A DNA stretch of 14,097 nucleotides from Deferribacteraceae bacterium (GCA_031285415.1 JAITWF010000126.1:1-14097), one strand, 5' to 3'; shown: positions 1 to 14,097, counted from the first letter of the stretch. Numbers and translations: made by a program. The notes: a model not told the origin generated them from the sequence alone.

Positions 1-1645
1 TGCCCTCTGGGTCTACAGCATGAACAGCGCAAGCTATGCATGGGTCGAAAGAGTGGATTGTACGGATAACTTCCAACGGTTTGTGCTCATCAGCGATAGG
101 GTTGCCAAGTAGAGACGCCTCGTATGGGCTAGCCACGTTAGCAGCGTCTTTAGGGCCTGCATTCCATGTAGATGGAACAACAGCCTGATAGTTAGCAATT
201 TTGCCATCTTCGATAACGATCCAGTGTGATAGGAAACCACGAGGAGCTTCCAACATACCAACGCCTTCGAATCTGCCTTTAGGGAACTCTGTTACGTGGT
301 TAGCGTATGTCTGATCCCCATTAGCGATGTTTGCACACAACATATCGATGCTCTCGATAGCTCTGTCAGCCATGATCGAGCAACGGATCGCTCTTGCAGC
401 ATGACGACCTAGTGTCGAGTGGAGCTGTGCAGGCTTCAACTTAGCAGCAGAAAGTGCGCCGTTCACGAGGCCAACAGTTTTCTGGTCGCCAGCTGTGTAT
501 GCAGCAAGGATCTGTGCCAAAGGTCCAACCTGATAAGGTTTGCCATTATAGCGAGGAGCCTTACACCATGTATACTTGCCATTATCTTCAAAATCAGTGT
601 ACTTAGGCTCTGATTTACCCTTATATGGGTGAAGGTTTGTAGCCTCTGTGTACCATGCGTGAGCAGTGTCCTCTGACATGCCGTTACGGAATGCAGCGTT
701 GTTCCAGTCTTTCAGCTCTGTAAATGCGCCCTCAGTGATCAAGCCGCCTTTATCAAGGAACGCTGAATTTTTGGTATCAGTTGGGAACTCTGGAACTGAC
801 ATATAGTTCGTAACGCCAGCACCGTAGCTAAACCACTCAGGGTAGAAGCTAGCAACTGCAAGAACGTCTGGTATATAAACTTTGTTTACAAACTCTTGAG
901 CTTTCAACACATTCTCTCTAACAAGAGCGATGCGCTCAAAGTTTAGAGTAGCAGGGTTGTCTACATTAATAGCTGTAGCAACACCACCAACGCAAAGGTT
1001 CTGGATGTGTGGCTCTTTACCGCCAAGAACTGCAACAGCTTGAGAAGCCATACGCTGATAGTCAAGTGCTTTTAGGTAGTGAGAGAACGCAATCAGGTTA
1101 ACCTCTGGTGGAAGCTTCATTGCAGGGTGACCCCAGTAAGCGTTGCCGAAGATACCGAGTTTGCCACGCTGTACGAAAGCAGCAAGACGCTCTTTCGCAG
1201 CGGTGAACTCATGCACGTTGTTGCCAGACCAGTCAGAGTAGCCCTGTGCGATCTGTGCAGCTTTTGCAGGATCAGCTTTCAGAGCAGATACTATATCAAC
1301 CCAGTCTAGTGCAGATAGGTGATAGAAGTGAACTATGTGGTCTTGCACGCAGTGTGCAGATGTAATAATGTTACGGATGTACTGAGCGTTAAGAGGGATC
1401 TCAACTTTCAGAGCGTCCTCAACTGCACGTACAGAGGCGAGCGCATGAGTGGTTGTGCAAACGCCGCAGAAGCGTTGTGCGAAAACCCATGCATCACGAG
1501 GGTCTCTGCCTTGCAATATTGTTTCGATACCACGAAACATCTGTGCAGACGACCAAGCTTTTGTTACCTTTCCCCCGCCTACTTCAACGTCTACCCTAAG
1601 GTGACCTTCTATCCTTGTAACTGGATCTACTTTAATTCTAGCCAT
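1..1645 (-). CDS. hybC: [NiFe] hydrogenase large subunit (HybC-like), 3' end truncated by the window edge
   Basis: Minus-strand ATG at 1645 gives MARIKVDPVTRIEGHLR, the canonical large-subunit N-terminus. The L1 motif RDAWVFAQRFCGVCTTTHAL lies around 1440-1500. Translating 100..2 gives ...HSFDPCIACAVH-AVDPEG, the C-terminal DPCxxCxxH Ni-binding motif (Cys, so not a NiFeSe enzyme) plus the start of the protease-cleaved extension. The reading frame is continuous over the whole span. RBS AGGAG lies 7 nt upstream (1652-1656). Confidence 0.93.
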   Translation of the reverse strand, partial: MARIKVDPVTRIEGHLRVDVEVGGGKVTKAWSSAQMFRGIETILQGRDPRDAWVFAQRFCGVCTTTHALASVRAVEDALKVEIPLNAQYIRNIITSAHCVQDHIVHFYHLSALDWVDIVSALKADPAKAAQIAQGYSDWSGNNVHEFTAAKERLAAFVQRGKLGIFGNAYWGHPAMKLPPEVNLIAFSHYLKALDYQRMASQAVAVLGGKEPHIQNLCVGGVATAINVDNPATLNFERIALVRENVLKAQEFVNKVYIPDVLAVASFYPEWFSYGAGVTNYMSVPEFPTDTKNSAFLDKGGLITEGAFTELKDWNNAAFRNGMSEDTAHAWYTEATNLHPYKGKSEPKYTDFEDNGKYTWCKAPRYNGKPYQVGPLAQILAAYTAGDQKTVGLVNGALSAAKLKPAQLHSTLGRHAARAIRCSIMADRAIESIDMLCANIANGDQTYANHVTEFPKGRFEGVGMLEAPRGFLSHWIVIEDGKIANYQAVVPSTWNAGPKDAANVASPYEASLLGNPIADEHKPLEVIRTIHSFDPCIACAVHAVDPEG

Positions 1646-1668
1646 TTATATTCTCCTCGATTATTAAA

Positions 1669-2844
1669 TTAATGCGCCCCTGCTGCGTGTGCTTTCGGCA
1701 GCAGTTTTAGCAATCTTGAAAGTATGATGTATGCCAATACTTCAAGAGCTATAAATCCATATGTAAGCATAAATTCAACTACAGATGGGAAGTATGGATT
1801 CCACTCGTCACCAGGGTTGAAGCCTACAAGGTATACGTTCATACGATACAAGCCGCCGCCGAAGCAGAGCATCATAGCCATAAAGAACGCTTTTCTTGGA
1901 GTCAGTTTCGTTGCAAACATAACTATCGGAATCACTATCAGTGCCGTCTCTATCCAGAACATTGCTGAATGGAAGCCCGATGTGAATAGGTAGCCAATTT
2001 TGCCACCGACTACAAGGCTGATAACACGAATAGCTAGCCAGAATGCGCCAACGAATGGGATGAAGCGAGCGATCTCCAACGCTTCATACTCGTATGGGCG
2101 TTTGAAACCTGCTGACGATAGACCAACTTCAAACTGTACGATAGATAGACCCATAAGTAGGGCGTTCGATACGAACAGAAGTGGTAGAAAGTTTGTCTGC
2201 CAGAGTGGGTGCAGTTTGTATCCAGTGATGATAAATAGCGAGCCAAGGGACGACTGGTGCATAGTAGGCAGAGTCATACCAAGAGCGATGATAAATATCA
2301 GCACTTTGTCGAGTTTAGGAGCTACAAATAGAGCCATGCTTTTAAAGAAGCCGTCTTTAAATGTTGCAAGTTTCTCGAGAACTGCTGGGAGAAACTCGAT
2401 AATAAGGATACAGGTATACGCCATAACGCAGAGCGCAACCTCAAACATGATCGAGTTTGGCTGCCACTGTGATGGAACGAAGAAGTTGTAAACGTTCCAG
2501 TAACGGCCTATATCGATAATAACGGATGTACCAGCAAGGGCATAGCCAAACATACTGGCAACGACCGCAGAGCGGATCATTGGGTGGTATTTCCAACCAT
2601 TTAAGATATAGCAGATAATTGCAAGTGCGTAACCGCCGCAGGCAAATGCTGTACCAATAGAAACGTCATACGCAAGCCATACCCCCCAAGGGTAGCCGTC
2701 GTTAAGATTTGATACTGCGCCGATGCTTGTAACAAAGCGGTAGCCTGCTACTGCAAAGGCAAATGCAACGAGCAACGCAAGCACAACTGTCACAGGTGTG
2801 ATCAGTTTCCCCGGTGCTTGAACATAATCATCATGATGGCTCAT
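1669..2844 (-). CDS. hybB: Hydrogenase-associated integral membrane subunit, NrfD/PsrC family (HybB-like, presumed quinone-interacting)
   Basis: 391 aa, about 10 hydrophobic helices. Motifs GYPWGVW, GTAFACGG, IDIGRYWN and MHQSSLGSL align colinearly with E. coli HybB as I recall it. It shows ATGA start/stop overlap with the upstream hybA (2841-2844). Confidence 0.85.
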   Translation of the reverse strand: MSHHDDYVQAPGKLITPVTVVLALLVAFAFAVAGYRFVTSIGAVSNLNDGYPWGVWLAYDVSIGTAFACGGYALAIICYILNGWKYHPMIRSAVVASMFGYALAGTSVIIDIGRYWNVYNFFVPSQWQPNSIMFEVALCVMAYTCILIIEFLPAVLEKLATFKDGFFKSMALFVAPKLDKVLIFIIALGMTLPTMHQSSLGSLFIITGYKLHPLWQTNFLPLLFVSNALLMGLSIVQFEVGLSSAGFKRPYEYEALEIARFIPFVGAFWLAIRVISLVVGGKIGYLFTSGFHSAMFWIETALIVIPIVMFATKLTPRKAFFMAMMLCFGGGLYRMNVYLVGFNPGDEWNPYFPSVVEFMLTYGFIALEVLAYIILSRLLKLLPKAHAAGAH

Positions 2845-3776
2845 GCGTGACCTCCTTTGTGATCATTATTCCTCTCGTCCTTGTCACGCTTAAACTGATG
2901 TTTCAGAGCGATCGCACATAGTGTGACATATAGAGCGGCAGGAGCTGCCATCCATTTGTATATTGTGTGCTGAATAGTTTCAGACTCTGTAGCATACGAG
3001 TAGTCAGGAAGAGTTGGCATGCCAAGTTTTTCAAAGTCAACTTTAGCTATGTATATAACGTTTGTGCCGCCATATTCATGCTCGCCGTAGACTTTATCTT
3101 GGAAGTAGTAGCCAGGCTTCTCTGCGATTCTACGTTTTGCTTCCGCCATAAGGTCGGTGCGTTTGCCGTAGATAACAGCTTTAACAGGGCAAGTTTCAAC
3201 GCAAGATGGCATACCTTTTGTTTTAAGGTTTGTCTCTCTGCAAAGCTCGCATTTAACGATTTTTGGGAATGTTTCATGCCATTCCCAAGATGGAACGTTG
3301 AATGGGCAAGCCATCTGGCAGTAGCGGCAACCGATACAGATCCCTTTATCGTACTCAACGATACCGGTCTCTGGGTTTTTTGTCATCGCTTTTACAGGGC
3401 ATGCAGATACGCAACCAGGTGCGTTACAGTGCATACACTGACGTTTGATGAATGCATACTCTGATTTATTTTCAGGGTTCTGATACATCTTAATAATATT
3501 TTTCGTACGATAATCAAGCTCTTGTACGTTCGCCCATCTTACTTCAGCGGTATCTGCAGGTGCAAGAGAGACGGTATCGTCTAGATTAAAGTTTGAATTA
3601 CGGCAAGCAGTAACACACGCCTGACAGCCCACGCAAAGTGAGGAATCGTATAGCATTCCTACTTCGTCTGGACCGAAAGTTATGGCTTTGCTCGCATGAG
3701 CCGCAACAGGGGAGAGCGCAAGAGCCCCCGCACCGATAGCGGCAGCTTTCATAAAGCCGCGTCTTGTACTTTTCAT
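2841..3776 (-). CDS. hybA: Periplasmic 4x[4Fe-4S] ferredoxin-like electron-transfer subunit with Tat signal and C-terminal membrane anchor (HybA-like)
   Basis: The N-terminus MKSTRRGFMKAAAIGAGALALSPVAAHA is a twin-arginine signal. There are four Cys clusters (CVGCQACVTAC, CMHCNAPGCVSACP, CIGCRYCQMACP, CELC...CVETCP). A hydrophobic C-terminal helix (AAPAALYVTLCAIAL) is present. AGGAG RBS lies 9 nt upstream. Strong colinear similarity to E. coli HybA as I recall it. Confidence 0.9.
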   Translation of the reverse strand: MKSTRRGFMKAAAIGAGALALSPVAAHASKAITFGPDEVGMLYDSSLCVGCQACVTACRNSNFNLDDTVSLAPADTAEVRWANVQELDYRTKNIIKMYQNPENKSEYAFIKRQCMHCNAPGCVSACPVKAMTKNPETGIVEYDKGICIGCRYCQMACPFNVPSWEWHETFPKIVKCELCRETNLKTKGMPSCVETCPVKAVIYGKRTDLMAEAKRRIAEKPGYYFQDKVYGEHEYGGTNVIYIAKVDFEKLGMPTLPDYSYATESETIQHTIYKWMAAPAALYVTLCAIALKHQFKRDKDERNNDHKGGHA

Positions 3777-3781
3777 GTGCC

Positions 3782-4858
3782 TTACTCCTTAGGTAATGTT
3801 GAGCCTTTGCCGGCTGCAAATCCTAGAGCCGCACCAGCGATTGCGCCAACGCCCAACGCAGAGATTGCGCTAACTGGTTTGCCAGAAGGGGTAACCTTGG
3901 TTGGTGGGAACCAAGCTGGAGATGTAGGATCGATTATGTCTACTTTATCAAAGATAGATGTGTTGAACACAAGTCTCTCTGTGCAACCAACGCAAGGGTG
4001 ACCGATAGAAACAGGCCATGCCACGTTGTCGTTGAAGCGAAGTGTAGAGCAGTTTGCATATGTAGCTGGGCCTTTGCAGCCGAGTTCATAGAGGCAGTAG
4101 CCAAGTGCGTGGCCTTCGTCGCCGAAATCTTTCGCAAAACGACCTGCGTCGAAGTGTGGACGACGCTCGCAATGCTCGTGGATTCTACGTCCGTATGCAA
4201 ATAGAGGTCTGTTCTCTGCATCCATCTCTGGGAGCTTGCCCATTGTGAGGAAGTAGAGGATAGTAGCGATTAGGTTGTATGGGCTAGGAGGGCAACCTGG
4301 TAGGTTGATAAGAGGTCTGTCCTCAACTAGTGATGAAACGCTAACAGCGCCAGTAGGGTTTGGTGCAGCTGCCTGAACGCCACCTAGAGACGCACATGTA
4401 CCCATGCTGATTACAGCGAATGCGCCATCTGCTGCAACTCTAAGAGAGTCAACAGCCTTTGTACCGCCAACCTGGCAGTAGATACCGTTCTCTGCGAGAG
4501 GTACTGCACCTTCGCAAACAAGGATATACTTGCCTTTGTGCGCTACGATAGCGTCGTGTAGGGCTTTTTCAGCCTGCTCACCAGAACCAACCATAAGTGT
4601 CTCATGATACTCAAGATTGATAACATCCAAAAGAAGGTTCCCTAAGCCAGGGTGGCTTGAACGTAAAAGTGACTCAGAACAACCAGTGCACTCCTGAAAA
4701 TGGAGCCAAATCACTGGAGGTCTATTGTCGGATTCAGCCGCCGCAGCTACTTTTGGAATCATTGTTGCGGGTAATCCCATAACTGCAGTAACTGCCGTGA
4801 TTGCTTTCATAAAATCGCGGCGCGAGAAATCTGCCCCAAACAAGCTAGCATCTAACAT
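3782..4858 (-). CDS. hybO: [NiFe] hydrogenase small subunit with Tat signal peptide and C-terminal transmembrane anchor (HybO-like)
   Basis: The ORF track gives 3782..4936. The ATG at 4858 is preferred because it yields MLDASLFGADFSRRDFMKAITAVTAVMGLPATMIPKVAAA, a typical Tat leader with RR at residues 13-14. GGGGGA lies 5 nt upstream of it. The upstream ATG at 4936 sits inside a TATAAT hexamer. The mature protein carries RPPVIWLHFQECTGC (proximal-cluster Cys motif), GxCxxxGG and GCPP motifs, and a C-terminal hydrophobic helix SAISALGVGAIAGAALGFAAG. Confidence 0.88.
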   Translation of the reverse strand: MLDASLFGADFSRRDFMKAITAVTAVMGLPATMIPKVAAAAESDNRPPVIWLHFQECTGCSESLLRSSHPGLGNLLLDVINLEYHETLMVGSGEQAEKALHDAIVAHKGKYILVCEGAVPLAENGIYCQVGGTKAVDSLRVAADGAFAVISMGTCASLGGVQAAAPNPTGAVSVSSLVEDRPLINLPGCPPSPYNLIATILYFLTMGKLPEMDAENRPLFAYGRRIHEHCERRPHFDAGRFAKDFGDEGHALGYCLYELGCKGPATYANCSTLRFNDNVAWPVSIGHPCVGCTERLVFNTSIFDKVDIIDPTSPAWFPPTKVTPSGKPVSAISALGVGAIAGAALGFAAGKGSTLPKE

Positions 4859-4934
4859 TTTTTCCCCCAAAAGTGTTTCCGCCCAATAAGCTCGAAAAGA
4901 TAGACTCCAAGCGCAGTTGCAGGGCATAACACTC

Positions 4935-4940
4935 ATTATA
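4935..4940 (-). promoter_or_regulatory. Candidate -10 hexamer (TATAAT on the minus strand) of the hydrogenase operon promoter
   Basis: A perfect TATAAT on the minus strand sits about 80 nt upstream of the preferred hybO start (4858). The only -35-like hexamer (TTTACA) is at a 12-nt spacer, so the promoter may depend on an activator. The region is AT-rich. Confidence 0.25.
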
Positions 4941-5132
4941 TTGAACCGAGTTTGTAAAGTTTTCGGTTAATCCGAACTATACCATGTTTTTTACAAAATA
5001 CAACCTAAAATTTGCTGTCCGGTTAGTTTACCCCCTGGTCTGGCAAATGTTTCGAAGTTTGTACTATTCAAAAAGATACCAAATTGGTCTTTTTTAAGTT
5101 TGTTATAGTATATAGATTTCAGAGTGTTAATT

Positions 5133-5262
5133 ATAACCCCTCCCCCTTGGGGGGAGGGTGGCACGCAGTGTCGGGAGAGGGGATAGTTTTGAAAATATAT
5201 TATTTGATAATAAATTACAGATAACCCCTCTCCCTTGATCCCTCCCCCCAAGGGGGAGGGGA
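5133..5262. repeat. Cluster of C-run/G-run palindromic elements: two near-identical CCCTCCCCC-loop-GGGGGAGGG stem-loops plus a long-range inverted repeat GGGAGAGGGG/CCCCTCTCCC
   Basis: The stem 5138-5146 / 5150-5158 is 9 bp with loop TTG. The stem 5240-5248 / 5252-5260 is 9-10 bp with loop CAA. Both are preceded by ATAACCCCTC (5133-5142 and 5221-5230). 5173-5182 GGGAGAGGGG is the exact reverse complement of 5225-5234 CCCCTCTCCC, separated by a 42-nt AT-rich spacer. Confidence 0.7.
5138..5158 (-). terminator. Possible intrinsic terminator of the lepA-uppS-ferredoxin operon (distal GC hairpin followed by TTATAATTAA on the minus strand)
   Basis: On the minus strand the 9-bp GC stem is followed by TTATAATTAAC. 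The proximal hairpin (5240-5260) begins 17 nt after the ferredoxin stop codon but lacks a U-tract. Confidence 0.35.
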
Positions 5263-5277
5263 AGAGTAAGTTGTCAG

Positions 5278-6354
5278 CTACTTCTCAAACTTTAATAGAT
5301 CGTCGAATAGCTCTTTGAGGTTTAATGTTTTACTAGGCACTATATATCCGTAGTAGCACGATATGCGGCACATTCCGCACGATGTGCAGTTGGATGGGTT
5401 GAATAGGATCTGTTTGTCATCTTCGCTCATATGGAATGCGCCTGTAGGACACATCCGTGTGCAAACTTTGCATAGAACGCAATCTGTAGCAATCTCAAAA
5501 TTATAAAAGTATGCGCCGATACGGATCTCATCCTTTAGAAGTTTGCCGCACGAAAGGAGTGACTCGATAAGTAGTTTGCGCTTGGCTGGCACCTCCTTAG
5601 TGGTGCGAGCGGTGGTGCGAGTTGGTAGCTCTTGCGGCGTTAGCAGTGCAGCGCTCTTCACTAAGGTATCGGCGGCGTTATCTCTAAAGAAACCGAACAT
5701 TCCTCTGCGGTCTACCGTTTGCGCCATCTTAAGAGCTTTCTCCTCCTTCGGATCGGGGGCTGAAATCGGGAACTGTTTTGGAAATTTTATAGTGATACTG
5801 CTCTGCTCGTGCGTAATCTGTACGCCATCGAGATATTCAAAGTATGTAGAGAGCTTTTTTAGCTCCTCTATCTCATCAGTAACGATATCTCTGCCATATT
5901 TAGAGGCACAGGCAGTACAATCGGGCGTTTCAATTATAATCTTGCTAGCACCATGGGTGTATAGATATAGAAGATCGGGAAGCCCTATTATTCCTAGGCA
6001 CTCCATCATGGCAGCGTCGGATTTGCTCACCTTACAGCTAAGTTTAAGCTCCCCTTCGGGGGTGATCTTCCCTAGATATTCCTTTAAAAAGTTCTCATAC
6101 TCCATCTCTCGTATGTTGAAAACGCCTGTGGGGCAGATGTTAACGCAGATACCGCAGTATGTGCAACTATCCCAATCGATATTGACGGTGCTCCCTACGT
6201 CGCCCACCTTTATTGCGCCTGTAGGACAGTTGGTTTCGCATAGGTTGCATTTGGAGAGCTTGTGGCACATCTTATTGCACCGCTCGGGGCGCACCCCTAC
6301 GGCTTGACTCATCCCCACAAGCACGGAGTTGGCTAGGTTGAACTTACCGAACAT
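5278..6354 (-). CDS. Cytoplasmic polyferredoxin: N-terminal and C-terminal 2x[4Fe-4S] ferredoxin domains flanking a ~180-aa middle region of unknown function
   Basis: 358 aa with no signal peptide. Motifs are CNKMCHKLSKCNLCETNCP (atypical spacing), CTYCGICVNICP, CVLCKVCTRMCP and CTSCGMCRISCYYG, plus a CTAC pair in the middle region. The start overlaps the uppS stop by 11 nt. An alternative start is the ATG at 6312 (MSQAVGVRPERC...). Neither start has a strong SD. Confidence 0.75.
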   Translation of the reverse strand: MFGKFNLANSVLVGMSQAVGVRPERCNKMCHKLSKCNLCETNCPTGAIKVGDVGSTVNIDWDSCTYCGICVNICPTGVFNIREMEYENFLKEYLGKITPEGELKLSCKVSKSDAAMMECLGIIGLPDLLYLYTHGASKIIIETPDCTACASKYGRDIVTDEIEELKKLSTYFEYLDGVQITHEQSSITIKFPKQFPISAPDPKEEKALKMAQTVDRRGMFGFFRDNAADTLVKSAALLTPQELPTRTTARTTKEVPAKRKLLIESLLSCGKLLKDEIRIGAYFYNFEIATDCVLCKVCTRMCPTGAFHMSEDDKQILFNPSNCTSCGMCRISCYYGYIVPSKTLNLKELFDDLLKFEK

Positions 6355-7030
6355 CTATCTGCTCATCTGTTTTGCCGAAGCGACGTTGGCGATTATTAAA
6401 GCTCTCTATAGCAAGCTTTAAATCGGTGTCGCCGAAATCTGGCCAGAGTGTTTCGGTGAAGTACATCTCGGCATATGCAAGCTGCCAGAGCATAAAGTTT
6501 GATATGCGCAGCTCGCCCCCTGTGCGGATCAGCAGATCCACATCGGATAGCTCTGGATGATATAGATACTTTGCAAAGCTCTCCTCTGTAAAGTCGTCGC
6601 CACTTTCAGCCAATCGTTTCGCCGCCTGCACGATCTCGTCTCTGCCGCCGTAATCGAGCGCAATATTCAGGATCATTCCTGTATTATCAGCCGATTCAGC
6701 CATAACGGTCTCTAACGCTCTCCTTCCAGATGTTGGGATACGATCGAGTCTACCAGAGACGATAAGCTTTACATTGTTTTTGATAAGCTCTCTCGCCTCT
6801 TTGGTGATATAATCCTCTAGAAGTTTCATCAGAAAGCTGACCTCGTCCTGTGGGCGAAGCCAGTTCTCTGTGGAGAAGGCGAATAGGCTTAATATATCGA
6901 CTCCAGCGTTATCGGCAGCTCGCACGATACGAGTGACCGATTTGACACCCTCACGATGTCCCATAACTCTGGAGAGACTGCGACGCTTCGCCCACTCGCC
7001 GTTGCGATCCATTATGATTGCAATGTGCAT
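6344..7030 (-). CDS. uppS: Undecaprenyl-diphosphate synthase (cis-prenyltransferase)
   Basis: HIAIIMDRNGEWAK...FAFSTENWLRP...RTGGELRISNFMLWQ...RRFG matches the conserved UppS blocks. The ATG immediately follows the frr stop (TAAATG, same frame). The purine-rich stretch AAAGAG lies upstream. Confidence 0.9.
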   Translation of the reverse strand: MHIAIIMDRNGEWAKRRSLSRVMGHREGVKSVTRIVRAADNAGVDILSLFAFSTENWLRPQDEVSFLMKLLEDYITKEARELIKNNVKLIVSGRLDRIPTSGRRALETVMAESADNTGMILNIALDYGGRDEIVQAAKRLAESGDDFTEESFAKYLYHPELSDVDLLIRTGGELRISNFMLWQLAYAEMYFTETLWPDFGDTDLKLAIESFNNRQRRFGKTDEQIDVR

Positions 7031-7588
7031 CTATATTTCCATTAACTCTTTCTCTTTAACTGCGGTGATCTCGTCTAACGATTTGATCTGTGCGTCGGTG
7101 ATCTTCTGGATCTCATCGACTGCACGTTTTGATTCATCTTCAGAGATCGCTTTATCCTTCTCTAGCTTCTTAACTTTATCATTTGCGTCACGACGTTCGT
7201 TGCGTACGGCGATCTTTGTATCTTCGCACATCTTTTTGACTACCTTTACGAGATCTTTACGACGCTCTTCGGTAAGTCTCGGTATCGGAATGCGCACTAG
7301 TTTACCGTCATTCGATGGGTTCAGACCTAATCCGCCGTTTAATATGGCCTTTTCGATAGCAGGGATCAGTGAAGAGTCCCACGGCTGTACTGTTACCATA
7401 TGAGCGTCTGCCACATGTAGCGTGCCAACGCCAGCTAGTGGGGTTGGTGTGCCATACGCCTCTACCCTGATATTATCAAAGATCGATGTGCTGGCACGCC
7501 CAGAGCGTACAGCTTTTAGTTCGCCTTTGAAGTGCTGGATTGTTTTATCCATCTTCTCTTTCATCTCGTTGATAGTTGTTTTAGACAT
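7031..7588 (-). CDS. frr: Ribosome recycling factor
   Basis: The ORF track gives 7031..7630. The internal ATG at 7588 is preferred because AGGAG lies 8 nt upstream and it gives the typical ~185-aa RRF (MSKTTINEMKEKMDKT...). Conserved blocks GTPTPL, VRIPIPRLTEERRKDL and VRNERRDANDK are present. Confidence 0.92.
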   Translation of the reverse strand: MSKTTINEMKEKMDKTIQHFKGELKAVRSGRASTSIFDNIRVEAYGTPTPLAGVGTLHVADAHMVTVQPWDSSLIPAIEKAILNGGLGLNPSNDGKLVRIPIPRLTEERRKDLVKVVKKMCEDTKIAVRNERRDANDKVKKLEKDKAISEDESKRAVDEIQKITDAQIKSLDEITAVKEKELMEI

Positions 7589-7633
7589 GTTTATATTCTC
7601 CTGATTGATTGCATTTATGTACCTAATCACGTC

Positions 7634-7695
7634 ATTGCGGACTTGATCCGCAATCCAGAATTAGTAGATCTGGACTGCGGCTCGTAGGCCGCAGT
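7634..7695 (-). other. Two perfect 8-bp stem-loops in the pyrH-frr intergenic spacer
   Basis: ATTGCGGA-cttga-TCCGCAAT (7634-7654) and ACTGCGGC-tcgtag-GCCGCAGT (7674-7695). Neither is followed by a U-run on the transcribed (minus) strand. Confidence 0.5.
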
Positions 7696-7704
7696 GACGG
7701 AGGT

Positions 7705-8409
7705 TTATTTTACTGTTGTTCCGACCGCTTCGCCCTTTACTACTCTTAATAGGCTTCCAGCTTCCATCATATTATATACCACTATCGGAATATTATTATC
7801 CATACACATGCTGATTGCGGTGGAGTCCATCACATTCAACCTCTTTGTGAGTACATCGATATACGAAACGGTATCATACTTAGTCGCTGTTGGGTCTTTC
7901 TTAGGGTCTGCGGTGTATACACCATCCACCTTTGTTGCCTTGATCACTACGTCGGCATTGATCTCGGACGCCCTCAATGTGGCTGTAGTGTCGGTGGTGA
8001 AGTAAGGGTTGCCTGTGCCAGCGGCGAAGATAACGACACGCCCCTTCTCGAGGTGCCTCATCGCTCTACGTCTGATAAACGGCTCTGCCACCTGACGCAT
8101 TTCGATAGCCGACTGTACACGTGTAGGGATTCCAGCCTTCTCTAGAGCGTCTTGCAGGGCGAGCGAATTGATCACCGTAGCAAGCATACCCATATAATCG
8201 GCAGATACTCTATCCATCCCCTGTGCAGAGCCTGACACTCCACGGAAGATATTGCCACCGCCGATCACAAGCCCTATCCGCACGCCAGAATCAAATAGTG
8301 TGCGGATCTCCTGCGCAATATAGCGCAAAGTTTCGCTCTCGACGCCGTACTGTTGGCCACCCATGAGTGCTTCGCCAGACAGCTTTAATAGGACTGTTTT
8401 ATATTTCAT
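7705..8409 (-). CDS. pyrH: UMP kinase
   Basis: [18 protein letters not shown]..., GGGNIFRG and the overall 234-aa length are typical of PyrH. GAGG lies 7 nt upstream, inside the lepB 3' end. Confidence 0.93.
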
Positions 8410-8413
8410 TGAA

Positions 8414-9001
8414 CTACCTCGTTATATTTAGCAAACGATCCCAACGTACCGACTTCAAGTTCAACATGCCGCCAGCAGGATCTTTCGACCAGTATATTAT
8501 AACTGACTTCCCTTTGAAGCTATCTCTAGGCACCAGTCCCCAATATCGGCTATCTGCGCTGGAGTCACGGTTATCACCCATCATGAAGTAATGCCCCTCT
8601 GGCACCTTAAACTCAGGCACATTGTCGGCGATAGGCCCCGATGGATAGTTTCGCAGCTGTACGTAATCCTCTTGCACCGCCGCACCGTTGCGATAGAGCT
8701 TCTTATCGACGATCTTTATCGTATCGCCCGGTTCACCGATTACACGCTTGATAAAATCTTTTCCAGGCTCTAGCGGATACTCAAATACTGCGATCTCGCC
8801 GAACTTTGGATCCCCTAAGAGGTAGCTAATCTTGCTAGCTATGATATGATCCCCAATCTGAAGCGTCTCAAGCATAGAGCCAGAGGGGATCACATATGCG
8901 CTCATTACAAATGTACGAATAATCATTGCGATCACAAACGCTACTACGAGCGAATCGAAAAAATCTCTCATCCCCTTCTTGGGTTCTTTTTCTTTAGACA
9001 T
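8414..9001 (-). CDS. lepB: Signal peptidase I
   Basis: An N-terminal TM helix is followed by [10 protein letters not shown] (catalytic Ser box), a Lys box and [16 protein letters not shown]. The start overlaps the lepA stop (TAATG). Confidence 0.9.
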
Positions 9002-10806
9002 TAATTTTCGTCTCCTATCTTCAATACAGCAAGGAAGGCGTCTTGCGGTAGGTCGATCTTGCCGATCGATTTCATGCGCTTCTTCCCCTCCTTCTGCTTC
9101 TCTAAAAGTTTACGTTTACGAGAGATATCGCCGCCGTAGCACTTTGCGATAACGTCTTTGCGGTACGCCTTGACGGTAGAGCGAGCGATAACCTTCGAGC
9201 CGATCGCCGCCTGAATCGCCACCTCAAACATCTGGCGTGGGATAACGTCTTTCATTCGCTCTACAAGCTCTCTCCCCTTGTACTCCGCCTGATCTTTATG
9301 CACGATAATACTTAATGCGTCCACAGGCTCTTTATTTATAAGTATATCTAGCTTCACAAGGCTGCCTGGGCGAAACTCTGAAAATTCGTAGTCGAATGAG
9401 GCATATCCTCGTGAGATCGATTTCAGTTTATCGTAAAAGTCTGTAACGACCTCCATCAGCGGTATATCGTACTCTAATATAGAGCGAGCGGCACTCATAT
9501 ATTTCATATTCGTCTGTATGCCACGTCGAGCGTTCAGAAGCTGCATAACGCTACCCACATATTCGGCAGGTAGGATTATCGTAGATGATATATACGGCTC
9601 CTCTACCTTTTCGCACTCTGACGGTGGCGGCAGGAGTGCAGGGTTGTCGATATCAAAGACTTCGCCGTTCAGTTTGGTGATACGGAATACAACCGTTGGG
9701 GCGGTGGAGATAAGGTCGAGATTAAACTCACGCTCGAGCCTCTCCTGTATGATCTCCATATGTAGAAGCCCCAAGAAGCCACAACGGAAGCCGAATCCTA
9801 ACGCTTGAGAGCTTTCAGGCTCAAAGGTGACGGCACTATCATTTAATATAAGCTTCTCTAGAGCGTCTCTTAACGTCTGATATTCGCTTGGGTCTATAGG
9901 GTAAAGCCCACAGAATACGACAGGCTTAACATGTTTAAATCCTGGAAATGGTGTATCAGTAGGTCTTTTAACGTGAGTGACGGTATCGCCGATCTTCACC
10001 TCATGCACCGATTTGATACTTGCGGTGATGAATCCTACCTCGCCAGCTGAGAGCTCCTTTAAGGCGATAGGGGATGGAGTGAATGAGCCCATCTCGATAA
10101 TCTCGTACTCCTTTCTGGTAGACATCAGCTTGATCTTGTCGCCTGGGCGCATAGTCCCCTCTACCATACGTACAAGGACTACTACGCCTCTATATGCGTC
10201 GTACCATGAGTCGAAGATCATTGCTTTGAGTGGATTTTCAGAGTCTCCCGATGGTGCAGGCACCTTTTTGACTATAGACTCTAGTATCTCACGAGTGCCG
10301 ATCTTCTCCTTTGCGCTAGCAAGAACGGCTTCGGAGGCGTCGATACCGATAGCGTCCTCGACCTCCTTCTGCACACGCTCTGGGTCTGCACTTGGTAGAT
10401 CGATCTTGTTTATAACGGTGATCAGCTCTAAGTTTTGGTCGACCGCCATGAATGCATTTGCGATCGTCTGCGCCTCTACACCCTGAGAGGCGTCCACTAC
10501 TACCAATGCCCCCTCACAGGCGGCAAGGCTTCGGGATACCTCATAGGTAAAGTCGACATGCCCTGGGGTGTCGATAAGGTTGAGCTGGTAGGTCTTTCCA
10601 TCATCTGCTGTATATGTAAGGCGAGCTGTCTGCGCCTTGATAGTGATCCCTCGCTCTCGCTCGATATCCATGCTATCAAGTACCTGCGCCTTCATCTTGC
10701 GCTCCTCAATCCCTCCAGTATACTCTATGATCCGATCGGCAAGGGTCGACTTGCCGTGGTCTATGTGCGCTATAATACTAAAGTTGCGTATCAATTTATT
10801 TTGCAT
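9001..10806 (-). CDS. lepA: Elongation factor 4 (translational GTPase LepA)
   Basis: [25 protein letters not shown] (G1 motif), [13 protein letters not shown] and the 601-aa length are typical of LepA. AAGAGG lies 9 nt upstream. Confidence 0.95.
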
Positions 10807-10895
10807 TAAATGAACCTCTTAAACTCGTTAAGATACACTAATACGCACCTATATGGCAAGCGATTTTACAGAAAAACTAATTGACGTTTACATTT

Positions 10896-10904
10896 TGTTA
10901 TAAT
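10896..10904 (+). promoter_or_regulatory. Extended -10 promoter element (TGtTATAAT) for the EncFtn-encapsulin operon
   Basis: TGTTATAAT at 10896-10904 lies 39 nt upstream of the EncFtn ATG. TAAGGAGAT RBS sits at 10929-10937. TTGACG at 10881-10886 is only 12 nt from the -10, so it is probably not a functional -35. Confidence 0.45.
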
Positions 10905-10942
10905 ACCATATGGCAAGTTTTAGTCTATAAGGAGATAAGATT

Positions 10943-11299
10943 ATGCCGAGTTTTGCGAACCCATTTCAGGGAAATGTGAACAGGAAGGTGACGAAGCTGG
11001 AGCTTATGCAAGCTCTTCGTATCGATATAGCGTCGGAGCTTGAGGCGATCTATCTATACGATGCGCACGCACTATCAACTGACGATCCGATCGCTAAAAG
11101 GGTGCTAGAGGATATCCGTGACGAGGAGAAGCAGCATGTGGGCGAGTTAATGACGCTTCTGCGCTATCTGGATCCAGGATTTGCTGCACTTTTAGCCGAT
11201 GGCGAGGGCGAGGTGAAGGAGATGATGGCGGATCTCGGTATAAAGGAGCGTCAAGTGGGCGATCTCACGATCGGTAGCCTTATAAAAGAGGATGATTAA
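10943..11299 (+). CDS. Encapsulated ferritin-like cargo protein (EncFtn) with C-terminal encapsulin targeting peptide
   Basis: 118 aa. ELEAIYLYDAH...DP...RDEEKQHVGE gives the Glu/Glu/His pattern (E32, E62, H65 in this ORF's numbering) of the EncFtn ferroxidase site. The C-terminus ...GDLTIGSLIKEDD matches the encapsulin cargo-loading consensus (L/I)xIGSL(K/I). It is immediately followed by the shell gene. Confidence 0.85.
   Translation: MPSFANPFQGNVNRKVTKLELMQALRIDIASELEAIYLYDAHALSTDDPIAKRVLEDIRDEEKQHVGELMTLLRYLDPGFAALLADGEGEVKEMMADLGIKERQVGDLTIGSLIKEDD
11261..11296 (+). other. Encapsulin cargo-loading (targeting) peptide coding segment at the EncFtn C-terminus
   Basis: DLTIGSLIKEDD. The G-S-L-I core resembles known targeting peptides (e.g. 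SLGIGSLK). Confidence 0.7.
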
Positions 11300-12092
11300 T
11301 ATGGATTATTTAGGAAGAGAGGGTGCGCCTATCTCCGCAGATCTGTGGCGCAATATAGATAATACAGTGGTCGATGTGGCAAAGAAATCATTAAAGGTAC
11401 GGCGGTTTCTCCCCCTTGTATCTGTAGGGACGGAGGCGCAATATGCAAAGATAGAGCGGTTTGACAAGGGTGAGGAGATTGAGGAGTGGTTCGTAAAGAC
11501 TACTAACCGCCAACTCGTCGAGATTCCGCAGATATATAGCGATTTTTGGCTCAACTGGCGAGATCTGAACGGTGCTATAGATCTCTCCCCCTGCATGCGT
11601 GCCGCAACGGTACTCTCCAAACATGAGGATGAGATGATCTTCTACGGAATTCCTGCTTTAAAGCTGGAGGGGCTATTGACGGTGAAAGGCTCACAGCAGG
11701 TAAAGCGTGGCAACTGGGGGGAGGGTGAAAACGCCTTTGCAGATGTAGCTACTGGGATAGCAATGCTTGAAAAGGCTGGACGTAGCGGCAGATACGCCCT
11801 TGTGGTAAGCCCCGATCTATACATGCAGCTACAGCGCATTCAGGCAGGTACTGGAGTTTTAGAGAGTAAGCGCATTCAGAAGCTCGTCGGCTCTGATATT
11901 ATAAAATCTACCGCTCTAAAGGATAAGACGGCATTCTTAGTATGCGCAGAGAGCTACTGCATGGATCTAGCTGTGGGGCAGGATATAACGACCGCATACC
12001 TTGAATGCGTCGACCTAAACCATCATTTCAGAGTGATGGAGACCGCTCTTTTAAGAATTAAATGCCCAGATGCTATTGTTTTATTCACATAG
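11292..12092 (+). CDS. Family-1 encapsulin shell protein (HK97-fold, linocin M18-like)
   Basis: 266 aa (263 aa if the start is the ATG at 11301, which has AAGAGGA 8 nt upstream). It aligns colinearly with T. maritima encapsulin as I recall it: SADLWRNIDNTVVDVAKKSLKVRRF, HEDEMIFYG, ALVVSPDLY, LAVGQDITTAYLE and a C-terminal ...AIVLFT. It overlaps the cargo gene stop. Confidence 0.88.
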   Translation: MINMDYLGREGAPISADLWRNIDNTVVDVAKKSLKVRRFLPLVSVGTEAQYAKIERFDKGEEIEEWFVKTTNRQLVEIPQIYSDFWLNWRDLNGAIDLSPCMRAATVLSKHEDEMIFYGIPALKLEGLLTVKGSQQVKRGNWGEGENAFADVATGIAMLEKAGRSGRYALVVSPDLYMQLQRIQAGTGVLESKRIQKLVGSDIIKSTALKDKTAFLVCAESYCMDLAVGQDITTAYLECVDLNHHFRVMETALLRIKCPDAIVLFT

Positions 12093-12112
12093 TTGTACTA
12101 TAGTTTCGTATT

Positions 12113-12982
12113 ATGAAACGTGATACATTAATAAAAACCCTGCTGACGGCGGCTATCCTCCTAGGTGGGGTCTTATCATTCTTTATACTGCCAAATCTCT
12201 TTGGGCTATCTGCCGCTGATGATAGCGGCTACTACAGATCCCTACAGGAGGCACTCGACAGCCGTCTAGCCTCCGCAAGCCTATTCTTTATGACTACCAA
12301 ACTCGTAAGCGGAATTATCGCATTCTCGCAAGATGTCAATGTAGACGCTAGCGTGGTGCTTGCAGGTATCGACGTATCGCCACTTATGGTGCTACAGCCT
12401 GTTGGCAGTACTATCAACAAGATCTCCGATCTGTTTCTGGTAGCAATGGGGGCGATAGTGCTTGAGAAGGTGGTGATGATCGCTGGCGGCTGGCTGTCGT
12501 TCAAGATCTTCTTCCCTATCGCTGCCGCTATCGGGGCGGTCTCCCTTTGGGGGCGGCATAGGGTAAACACTCGAAAGGCAGCGATCGGTATGCTTATCAT
12601 CGGTATCGTTTCGTGGGGGGCGGTGCCGCTATCTATAATGACCTCTACCATGCTAGAGCGTTACTTTATGGGAGATATAATGACGCTCTCCGCCGATAGG
12701 GTGGAGAAGAATGCTTCGGAGCTGGAGGTTATCCAGAGCGACCTCACCGACCCTTCCGAATGGGGAGTGGGGGCGGAGAAGAGCTCATTTCTAGATAAAC
12801 TCAAGGTGCCGAACGTCGGACTAAAGATAAACGAGGTGCTGACGGCGATCTCATCGAAAACTGAAAATATCGTGAAAGATCTCGTGAACGCCTTTATAGT
12901 GCTTGTTATTACTACCTTAATCCTGCCGATCGGCACTATCTTTGTGCTCTGGTTTGTGTTGAGAGGGCTGACTAGCCAATGA
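12113..12982 (+). CDS. Uncharacterised polytopic membrane protein (about 5 N-terminal TM helices, a ~70-aa soluble acidic segment, and a C-terminal TM helix)
   Basis: 289 aa with no recognisable catalytic motif. It lies 20 nt downstream of the encapsulin gene with no terminator between them. Its stop overlaps the aroK start (ATGA). No SD is evident upstream. Confidence 0.6.
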   Translation: MKRDTLIKTLLTAAILLGGVLSFFILPNLFGLSAADDSGYYRSLQEALDSRLASASLFFMTTKLVSGIIAFSQDVNVDASVVLAGIDVSPLMVLQPVGSTINKISDLFLVAMGAIVLEKVVMIAGGWLSFKIFFPIAAAIGAVSLWGRHRVNTRKAAIGMLIIGIVSWGAVPLSIMTSTMLERYFMGDIMTLSADRVEKNASELEVIQSDLTDPSEWGVGAEKSSFLDKLKVPNVGLKINEVLTAISSKTENIVKDLVNAFIVLVITTLILPIGTIFVLWFVLRGLTSQ

Positions 12983-13464
12983 TCTTCTTAACAGGTTTCC
13001 TATGCACAGGCAAAAGTACCGTTGGTAAAGCACTCGCCGCACGGCGTAATCTACCATTTACCGACTTGGATACAGAGATAGAACGTCTCGCCGATCTGCC
13101 AGTGGCGGAGATCTTTCAGCGGTACGGTTCGGAGCGGTTTCGCAAGCTTGAGTCAGAGGCACTCAAAACTGTGCAATCTGGCGTTGTCGCCTGCGGCGGC
13201 GGCACTATTACAATCAGAGAGAATTTAAGGTGGATGAGGGCAAATGGCAAGATCCTTCTACTAACCGCTACCCCTACAGAGATCTTTAAACGATTAAGTA
13301 GTGACTACGCTCGGCCGCTTATGGGTAGCGCACCCACAGAGATGATGGTGAAAAGGCTCTTATTTGCTAGAGCTTGCCACTATACACAGGCGGATCTCCT
13401 TATAGATACAACGAACGTCAATATCGATACGATATTAGAGAGGATAGATGAGCATTATCAGTGA
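12979..13464 (+). CDS. aroK: Shikimate kinase
   Basis: Walker A GFLCTGKST at residues 5-13, a DLD motif, a GGG lid, and the ~160-aa size. Confidence 0.9.
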   Translation: MIFLTGFLCTGKSTVGKALAARRNLPFTDLDTEIERLADLPVAEIFQRYGSERFRKLESEALKTVQSGVVACGGGTITIRENLRWMRANGKILLLTATPTEIFKRLSSDYARPLMGSAPTEMMVKRLLFARACHYTQADLLIDTTNVNIDTILERIDEHYQ

Positions 13465-14097
13465 ACAGTCGGCAGCAGAGTTTGTAAAGGGCTCTGGTGC
13501 CTTTATGATCGCCGATCGGCGAGTGGCGGAGCTATATCCAGAGTGCCTTTCAGAGAGAAGCTTTATCGTGGATAGCGGTGAGGAGTTGAAAAGCTTTGCA
13601 AAGGTTGAGACGTTTATCAAGTGGCTTGCCGATAATGGCTGCAATAGGGGTAGCGAGATTGTTGCGCTTGGCGGTGGCACCGTTGGCGATATGGCAGGCT
13701 TCGCCGCCGCAATATATATGCGTGGGGTAAAGTTTCATAATATCCCCACGACGCTCCTATCGATGGTAGACTCCGCTATCGGTGGCAAGACGGCGGTGAA
13801 CGTAGGCAGTATTAAAAATCTCGTAGGGGCGTTTCATCAACCTACTAACGTAATCATAGATATAGCTTTTTTGAAAAGTATCACCGATAATGACTTTCTT
13901 TCAGGCTTTGGCGAGATAATTAAAACCGCTGCAATCGCTGATCAGTCACTATTTAATATGCTTTTAAATGAGCGAGATCGAGTGCTACGTAGGGAGATCG
14001 GCGATATTATTACACGAGTATGCAATATAAAGGCGGATACGGTAAGGAGAGACCCATACGATAATGGTATACGAGTGATACTGAACGCTGGACATAC
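13448..14097 (+). CDS. aroB: 3-dehydroquinate synthase (3' end truncated by the window edge)
   Basis: Translation from the ATG at 13448 gives MSIISEQ...VALGGGTVGDMAGFAAA...DSAIGGKTAVN...ILNAGH, the NAD-binding and active-site blocks of AroB. A stop lies immediately upstream in frame. It overlaps aroK by 17 nt. Confidence 0.88.
   Translation, partial: MSIISEQSAAEFVKGSGAFMIADRRVAELYPECLSERSFIVDSGEELKSFAKVETFIKWLADNGCNRGSEIVALGGGTVGDMAGFAAAIYMRGVKFHNIPTTLLSMVDSAIGGKTAVNVGSIKNLVGAFHQPTNVIIDIAFLKSITDNDFLSGFGEIIKTAAIADQSLFNMLLNERDRVLRREIGDIITRVCNIKADTVRRDPYDNGIRVILNAGH

Follow-up and report, generated by a model that had tools for sequence, protein, structure and literature searches.

A predicted two-gene family 1 encapsulin cassette with a ferritin-like cargo in a Deferribacteraceae bacterium

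The DNA analysed here, a complete contig of 14,097 nucleotides from a metagenome-assembled genome of a Deferribacteraceae bacterium (GCA_031285415.1, contig JAITWF010000126.1, positions 1–14097; hereafter the window), carries a pair of genes that very probably forms a self-contained family 1 (classical) encapsulin cassette with a ferritin-like cargo. The two open reading frames (ORFs) lie on the plus strand and together span positions 10943–12092. The upstream ORF encodes the cargo and the downstream ORF the shell, and nothing that was found contradicts the assignment of the pair to this family.

10943–11299, plus strand: cargo gene, 118 residues, an encapsulated ferritin-like protein of the FLP-TP or EncB-family type
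11301–12092, plus strand: shell gene, 263 residues, a protomer of the family 1 encapsulins (EncA-like sublineage)

The shell protein scores 233.7 bits against the NCBIfam equivalog model NF041155 encap_f1 (cutoff 100, E = 2e-69) and 202.8 bits against Pfam PF04454 Linocin_M18 (cutoff 24.3, E = 7e-60). Its best sequence match in the Protein Data Bank (PDB) is the Myxococcus xanthus shell protein EncA (7e-45), followed by the shells of Bacillus methanolicus, D. quercicolus and Quasibacillus thermotolerans (1e-42 to 5e-40) and then by that of Thermotoga maritima (5e-15). The AlphaFold2 model of the protomer, built with 54 homologues, has a mean predicted local distance difference test score (pLDDT) of 92.5. 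It displays an HK97 fold made up of an N-terminal helix (residues 13–30), an E-loop hairpin (residues 48–74), a spine helix (residues 96–115), a P-domain and an A-domain, and it contains neither a long N-arm nor an insertion domain. A Foldseek search of the PDB with this model returns encapsulin shells only. The model superimposes on the EncA-like group with template modelling (TM) scores of 0.86–0.91 at 34–38% sequence identity (TM 0.90 for M. xanthus EncA, PDB id: 8vjo), and on the B. methanolicus protomer (9fy6_C) over 262 columns at 1.7 Å root-mean-square deviation (rmsd). The shells of T. maritima, Haliangium ochraceum, mycobacteria and enterobacteria give TM scores of 0.74–0.84 at 20–26% identity. 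The shell of the window contains five cysteines, and most of its relatives contain none to three.

The arrangement of the two genes is conserved. Taking one genome per species, 319 loci with relatives of the shell were found, the best 80 of which were kept and joined by three metagenomic contigs to give a set of 83. In 82 of these 83 loci, the shell gene is immediately preceded by an EncFtn-type ORF on its own strand, usually at a distance of 9–30 nucleotides, and in the single exception the shell lies at a contig edge. The loci with the cargo-then-shell order come from many lineages of anaerobes. This pairing bears on a reading in which the shell gene would be left over from a prophage, as its HK97 major capsid gene, with no relation to the gene upstream. 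The HK97 fold itself speaks for such an origin, as do matches of some relatives to PF09950, a phage capsid-related family. Nevertheless, a prophage remnant is extremely unlikely here: the window lacks genes for a terminase, portal, protease or scaffold, and the pair is flanked in it by lepA on one side and by a membrane protein ORF, aroK and aroB on the other; the GC content is uniform; the encap_f1 score is far above its cutoff; and the shell is strictly paired with a cargo that bears a targeting peptide. The pair is situated outside any phage morphogenesis module, and its flanks vary between loci.

The cargo protein matches the NCBIfam model NF058679 EncB_fam with 149.7 bits (cutoff 90, E = 3e-44). 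By sequence, its best PDB matches are the EncFtn of Pyrococcus furiosus (5n5e; 5e-15, 43% identity), M. xanthus EncC (7s8t; 4e-14) and EncB (1e-6). Two scores are weak points of this assignment. The margin over the cutoff of Pfam PF22277 EncFtn-like is small (29 bits, cutoff 27), and the classical EncFtn model of the T. maritima and Rhodospirillum rubrum type, TIGR04535 ferrit_encaps, gives 94.5 bits, below its cutoff of 125. Because of the latter score, the cargo is filed in the EncB-like branch and not in the classical EncFtn branch. The AlphaFold2 monomer (pLDDT 81) consists of helices at residues 18–45, 49–76 (long) and 80–97 (short) followed by a low-confidence tail, a predicted pattern that agrees with the FLP-TP architecture of two long antiparallel helices, a short helix and a disordered tail (PMC11202242). 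All of the top 50 Foldseek matches of this model in the PDB are encapsulated ferritins, with R. rubrum and H. ochraceum EncFtn among the structural matches at only 22–27% identity.

11036–11137, plus strand: ferroxidase-ligand stretch of the cargo gene, bounded by the codons of Glu32 and His65 and including Tyr39

The ferroxidase ligands are found in two motifs of the cargo, ELEAIYLYD and RDEEKQHVGE. The di-iron ligand codons are those of Glu32 (11036–11038), Glu62 (11126–11128) and His65 (11135–11137), with residue numbers identical to those of R. rubrum, and the three residues align with their equivalents in P. furiosus EncFtn and EncC. In the 82 cargo sequences compared (that of the window and 81 distinct homologues), residues E32, E34, Y39, H42, E61, E62 and H65 are invariant. 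We interpret the protein as an encapsulated ferritin-like protein which, by analogy with its characterised relatives, would have ferroxidase activity.

In public annotation, the two products carry other names. NCBI lists them as 'rubrerythrin' (MDR2884630.1) and 'bacteriocin family protein' (MDR2884631.1), and relatives of the cargo go under the names 'demethoxyubiquinone hydroxylase family protein' and 'COQ7'. Taken literally, these names describe a rubrerythrin or a COQ7-type demethoxyubiquinone hydroxylase next to a Linocin-M18-type bacteriocin, with no compartment. The Pfam COQ7 score of the cargo (24.6 bits) does exceed its cutoff of 23.5, but the match is limited to profile positions 3–56 of 169, a single helix-hairpin half-site, and the 118-residue protein has one E-x-x-H motif (E62–H65) as opposed to the two EXXH motifs of a di-iron four-helix-bundle domain of about 170 residues. 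With 19.7 bits, the Pfam Rubrerythrin match stays under its cutoff (22.8). Furthermore, the cargo does not contain any cysteine and therefore cannot carry a rubredoxin (Cys4) domain, and its EncB_fam score stands against both names. The 'bacteriocin' label attached to PF04454 is wrong for family 1 shells, and cargos labelled Flp, rubrerythrin or CoQ7 belong to one functional class of ferroxidase cargo (Andreas and Giessen, PMC8346489). The public names of the pair are known misnomers, and there is very little chance that they are right.

The element that would link the two proteins is located at the end of the cargo.

11264–11281, plus strand: core of the targeting peptide, L108-T-I-G-S-L113, five residues from the C-terminus

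The C-terminus of the cargo is DLTIGSLIKEDD, and its tail reads LTIGSLIKEDD. A low-confidence, presumably disordered linker precedes the LTIGSL core, and residues 101–118 of the model have pLDDT values of 57 and 47. The core matches the LTVGSLR targeting peptide shared by M. xanthus EncB, EncC and EncD (PMC11126975) and does not match the GGDLGIRK peptide of T. maritima (PMC8229669). The pattern [TS][VI]G[SDNG][LM] is present one to seven residues from the C-terminus in every one of the 82 cargo sequences, with TVGSL as its commonest form. A scan of the ORFs in the window for further C-terminal TVGSL-like motifs revealed no second cargo; LTIGSL is the only instance in a real ORF.

An earlier note on this DNA, made without database searches, had proposed a family 1 shell with an HK97 fold, an EncFtn signature with E32, E62 and H65 in the cargo and a near-consensus targeting peptide, all within 10943–12092. 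These proposals hold up: the profile scores of both ORFs (PF04454, encap_f1, EncB_fam and PF22277) are above the respective cutoffs, the predicted shell fold is HK97-like, the three ligands stand at the numbers given, LTIGSL belongs to the motif found in all 82 cargo sequences, and the outer coordinates agree with the ORFs.

By analogy with the characterised relatives, we infer the following mode of action. Each cargo chain would form a hairpin of two long helices, and in paired chains the residues Glu32, Glu62 and His65 would make up a di-iron ferroxidase centre. Five such dimers would then assemble into a ring-shaped decamer (annular D5). The flexible linker would allow LTIGSL to dock in a hydrophobic pocket flanked by N-helix and P-domain on the inner face of a shell protomer, so that the cargo would be enclosed while the HK97-fold protomers self-assemble into an icosahedral shell. 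Ferrous iron would enter via the shell pores and be oxidised by the cargo, and the resulting ferric mineral would be kept in the lumen. Such a compartment may serve for iron storage and for protection of an anaerobe from iron- or oxidant-driven damage.

Whether the functional unit extends beyond the two genes can be judged from what follows the shell gene.

12113–12982, plus strand: membrane protein ORF, 289 residues with about five hydrophobic segments, NCBI hypothetical protein LBV09_05945

This ORF starts 20 nucleotides past the shell stop on the same strand, and a terminator scan 3' of the shell gene found no terminator-like site before it. With its hydrophobic segments, the product could be imagined as a co-transcribed partner of the compartment, for instance in metal transport. 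Such a larger unit is quite improbable. None of the 83 related encapsulin loci contains a homologue of the membrane ORF, which is a singleton at 90% clustering and lacks a match in Pfam and NCBIfam up to E = 10. Moreover, its stop codon overlaps the start of aroK (ATGA, 12979–12982), which ties it to the aroK–aroB unit. A search for conserved accessory genes round the module in the 82 loci found none; the largest cluster of flanking genes, a generic ABC ATPase, is present in nine loci. Since the pair recurs and the flanking genes do not, the functional unit appears to be a mobile two-gene cassette.

The boundary between the two genes depends on the start codon of the shell, for which there are two candidates: ATG 11292, giving 266 residues and an 8-nucleotide overlap with the cargo gene, and ATG 11301, giving 263 residues and located one nucleotide past the cargo stop codon (TAA, 11297–11299).

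11286–11292, plus strand: shell Shine-Dalgarno sequence AAGAGGA, inside the final codons of the cargo ORF, from direct reading

Homologous shells all start with MDYL or MEYL at the place matching ATG 11301. Both the Pfam and the NCBIfam alignments open at this start, and the NCBI shell protein MDR2884631.1 is 263 residues long. The GAGG core of the Shine-Dalgarno sequence ends at 11291, which leaves 8 nucleotides to ATG 11301, while AAGAGGA covers ATG 11292 itself. On account of the homologue N-termini, the profile alignments, the NCBI protein and the Shine-Dalgarno spacing, ATG 11301 is the better-supported start, and the cargo and shell genes probably abut without overlapping. The JGI call of the shell gene uses the 11292 start and gives 266 residues. 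The earlier note had described an overlapping downstream gene of 263–266 residues; the ORF and its two possible lengths agree with these candidates, and it is the overlap that the favoured start would remove. The position of the Shine-Dalgarno sequence inside the end of the cargo gene suggests that translation of the two genes is coupled.

The least certain property of the compartment is its size. A profile of the clade to which the shell belongs was scored against solved shells, with the T=3/T=4 set (T, triangulation number) defined as shells deposited with three to four chains per entry; T=3 for EncA and T=4 for Q. thermotolerans are stated in papers, and T=4 for the other shells is deduced from chain counts. 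The profile gives 220–271 bits against EncA, B. methanolicus, D. quercicolus, Q. thermotolerans and the entries 9zvv and 9zw3, and no more than 106 bits against every T=1 shell. Protomers of T=3 and T=4 shells differ from those of T=1 shells in the compact orientation of their E-loop (PMC11664910; PMC8229669), and the 1.7 Å superposition on the B. methanolicus T=4 protomer would therefore imply a compact E-loop in the predicted model. Furthermore, the closest solved relatives of the cargo come from T=3 systems (P. furiosus and M. xanthus).

11562–11588, plus strand: loop deletion in the shell (residues 88–96), from alignment with relatives of about 270 residues

Several points, however, weigh against a large particle. 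With 263 residues, a T=1-like length, the protein falls 15–25 residues short of the solved shells of the T=3 and T=4 kind. The tip of its E-loop is about 8 residues shorter than that of EncA. Compared to its own clade of about 270 residues, it also lacks 6–7 residues at positions 88–95, in the loop that leads from the conserved WRD motif to the spine helix. When no cargo is present, even EncA assembles into T=1 shells (PMC11202242), and EncA-type protomers have been seen in T=1 shells without cargo or when mutated (7s21, 8v4n, 9b9i). Among the characterised EncFtn-TP systems, those with T=1 shells are in the majority (PMC11202242, Table 1). Finally, a search with a clade member (P0077) for a solved structure inside the clade of about 270 residues found none, the best match still being EncA. 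The same system could thus have a 60-subunit T=1 shell of about 24 nm, like those of T. maritima, R. rubrum and H. ochraceum. We consider this possible, though doubtful, in view of the clean split of the profile scores, the lower identity to T=1 shells (20–26%, against 34–38% to T=3/T=4 shells), the fit of the model to a T=4 protomer and the M. xanthus and P. furiosus type of the cargo and its targeting peptide. With moderate confidence, the shell is assigned a triangulation number above 1, and a 180- or 240-subunit particle (T=3 or T=4, about 32–42 nm) is more likely than a 60-subunit particle of 24 nm. The T=1 particle of about 24 nm predicted in the earlier note is not supported, and the sequence evidence points to a larger shell, with a higher iron capacity than was assumed there.

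In the two closest relatives of the shell (78% identity), the loop between the WRD motif and the spine helix carries intermediate deletions. The proposal that the deletion at residues 88–95 corresponds to the loss of a 'G-loop', reportedly a conserved feature of T=4 encapsulins, was considered and set aside, as the HK97 analogy appears to speak against it. It may be that shells of about 263–272 residues with a single short EncFtn-TP cargo make up an EncA-like sublineage widespread in gut and sediment anaerobes, and that the window holds its most trimmed member, which might differ in triangulation number or pore architecture from the T=3 and T=4 relatives. This is a speculative and rather unlikely proposal; if true, it would be a case from nature in which shell size is switched by loop length inside one lineage.

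The nearest relatives of the shell are metagenomic sequences (66–78% identity), followed by proteins of Eubacteriales, Oscillospiraceae and Desulfarculales (56–60%). The shells of other metagenome-assembled genomes of Deferribacteraceae (loci L035, L041, L048 and L056) are 46–47% identical to that of the window, compared to 56–58% for Desulfarculales and Oscillospiraceae. This suggests that the Deferribacteraceae acquired the cassette more than once, and there are hints of lateral exchange among anaerobes. In a compositional check for recent transfer, the GC content was uniform across the window. The cargo ORFs of the four other Deferribacteraceae loci look longer (151–164 residues with first-start calling) and end in KLTVGSLLKK tails. 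A metagenomic relative from a bacterial clade (P0113, ENA, 401 residues) has an EncFtn-like domain fused to the shell (PF22277 and PF04454); such fusions have been described mainly for archaea (PMC8346489). A search of the published literature for encapsulins in Deferribacteraceae (Deferribacter, Mucispirillum) found nothing relevant.

The region upstream of the cargo gene was scanned for regulatory signals.

10807–10942, plus strand: intergenic region between lepA and the cargo gene, presumed to hold the promoter and 5' leader of both genes
10881 (TTGACG) and 10899–10904 (TATAAT), plus strand: sigma-70-like hexamers from a consensus scan, weak, with a non-canonical 12-nucleotide spacer
10930–10934, plus strand: cargo Shine-Dalgarno sequence AGGAG, from direct reading

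The best matches in the sigma-70 scan are weak (9 of 12 positions). An exact 10-nucleotide direct repeat, ATATGGCAAG, was found at 10851–10860 and 10908–10917, the copies being 57 bp apart, and the two copies bracket the promoter-like hexamers. The repeat could be an operator, although a short repeat in two copies may also arise by chance. Consensus scans of this intergenic region for Fur and PerR boxes gave nothing above shuffled sequence. Across the whole window, nothing was detected by an Rfam scan at gathering thresholds or by a tRNA scan.

The rest of the window is occupied by genes that show no link to the pair.

12979–13464, plus strand: aroK, following the membrane protein ORF
13448 to the right end (14095), plus strand: aroB, starting with a 17-nucleotide overlap with aroK and running off the window
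2–4936, minus strand: hybO-A-B-C cluster of a Hyd-2-type [NiFe] hydrogenase
3782–4936, minus strand: hydrogenase small subunit (hybO) with a Tat signal, part of the hybO-A-B-C cluster
2841–3776, minus strand: HybA (372.5 bits, cutoff 263)
1669–2844, minus strand: HybB cytochrome b subunit (475.7 bits, cutoff 450)
1645 to the left end, minus strand: hydrogenase large subunit, running off the window just past its DPCIACAVH motif
5278–6354, minus strand: polyferredoxin of 358 residues, located between the hydrogenase cluster and uppS, with multiple 4Fe-4S ferredoxin motifs at either end and an unassigned middle part, its start overlapping uppS by 11 nucleotides

No NCBIfam model reaches its cutoff on the polyferredoxin. 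The earlier note had thought it notable that the pair lies beside an uptake-hydrogenase locus. The hydrogenase cluster is real, but it lies about 6 kb away on the opposite strand, and the intervening segment contains lepA, lepB, pyrH, frr, uppS and the polyferredoxin gene. When the neighbours in the window were sought within 4 kb of the module elsewhere, none of hybO, hybA, hybB, the polyferredoxin gene, uppS, frr, pyrH, lepB, an 86-residue ORF, the membrane ORF and aroK was found, and lepA gave only two weak GTPase matches. With six intervening housekeeping genes on the other strand and neighbours that do not recur, the proximity to the hydrogenase is incidental and without functional meaning.

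Systems of this type are already thoroughly described: family 1 encapsulins loaded with Flp or EncFtn rank second in size among the cargo classes of classical encapsulins and are on record from 23 bacterial phyla (PMC8346489). The pair in the window is an uncharacterised member from the Deferribacteraceae. The main value of the locus lies in its correct annotation, as it illustrates the persistent misannotation of such pairs as 'rubrerythrin' and 'bacteriocin family protein'. A further, modest value is that it represents a clade of anaerobes without a solved structure.

Among known systems, the iron-storage compartment of M. xanthus (EncA with EncB and EncC; T=3, about 32 nm) is the most similar. 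EncA is the closest solved shell (7e-45, 36–37% identity, TM 0.90), the cargo of the window falls in the EncB family and matches EncC (4e-14), LTIGSL resembles LTVGSLR, and the ferroxidase ligands are the same. The gene order is different: in M. xanthus, encA precedes encB, and EncC and EncD are encoded elsewhere, whereas in the window a single cargo gene precedes the shell gene. The shell of the window is 24 residues shorter than EncA, the E-loop tip and the loop before the spine helix both being reduced in length, and its cargo has 118 residues and a short linker, compared to 158 residues in EncB. Unlike M. xanthus, the window shows no EncD-type ferric reductase, and its host is an anaerobe.

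The EncFtn-encapsulin of P. furiosus (T=3; 5n5e), which also comes from an anaerobic host, provides the best structural and sequence match to the cargo domain. There, the shell carries the ferritin domain as an N-terminal fusion, while in the window the two proteins are encoded by separate genes and joined via the targeting peptide. The EncFtn systems of T. maritima, R. rubrum and H. ochraceum (T=1, about 24 nm) share the cargo fold and the E32/E62/H65 centre with the window. They differ in their shells, which are 20–26% identical to that of the window and score no more than 106 bits with the clade profile, and in their cargo model, TIGR04535, for which the cargo of the window is below the cutoff. 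The shells of the IMEF encapsulins of Q. thermotolerans and B. methanolicus (T=4, about 42 nm), of about 280 residues compared to 263 in the window, belong to the same EncA-like sublineage (35–38% identity, rmsd down to 1.7 Å), but their cargo is a four-helix-bundle IMEF, often accompanied by a ferredoxin, and that of the window is a half-ferritin of the EncFtn type.

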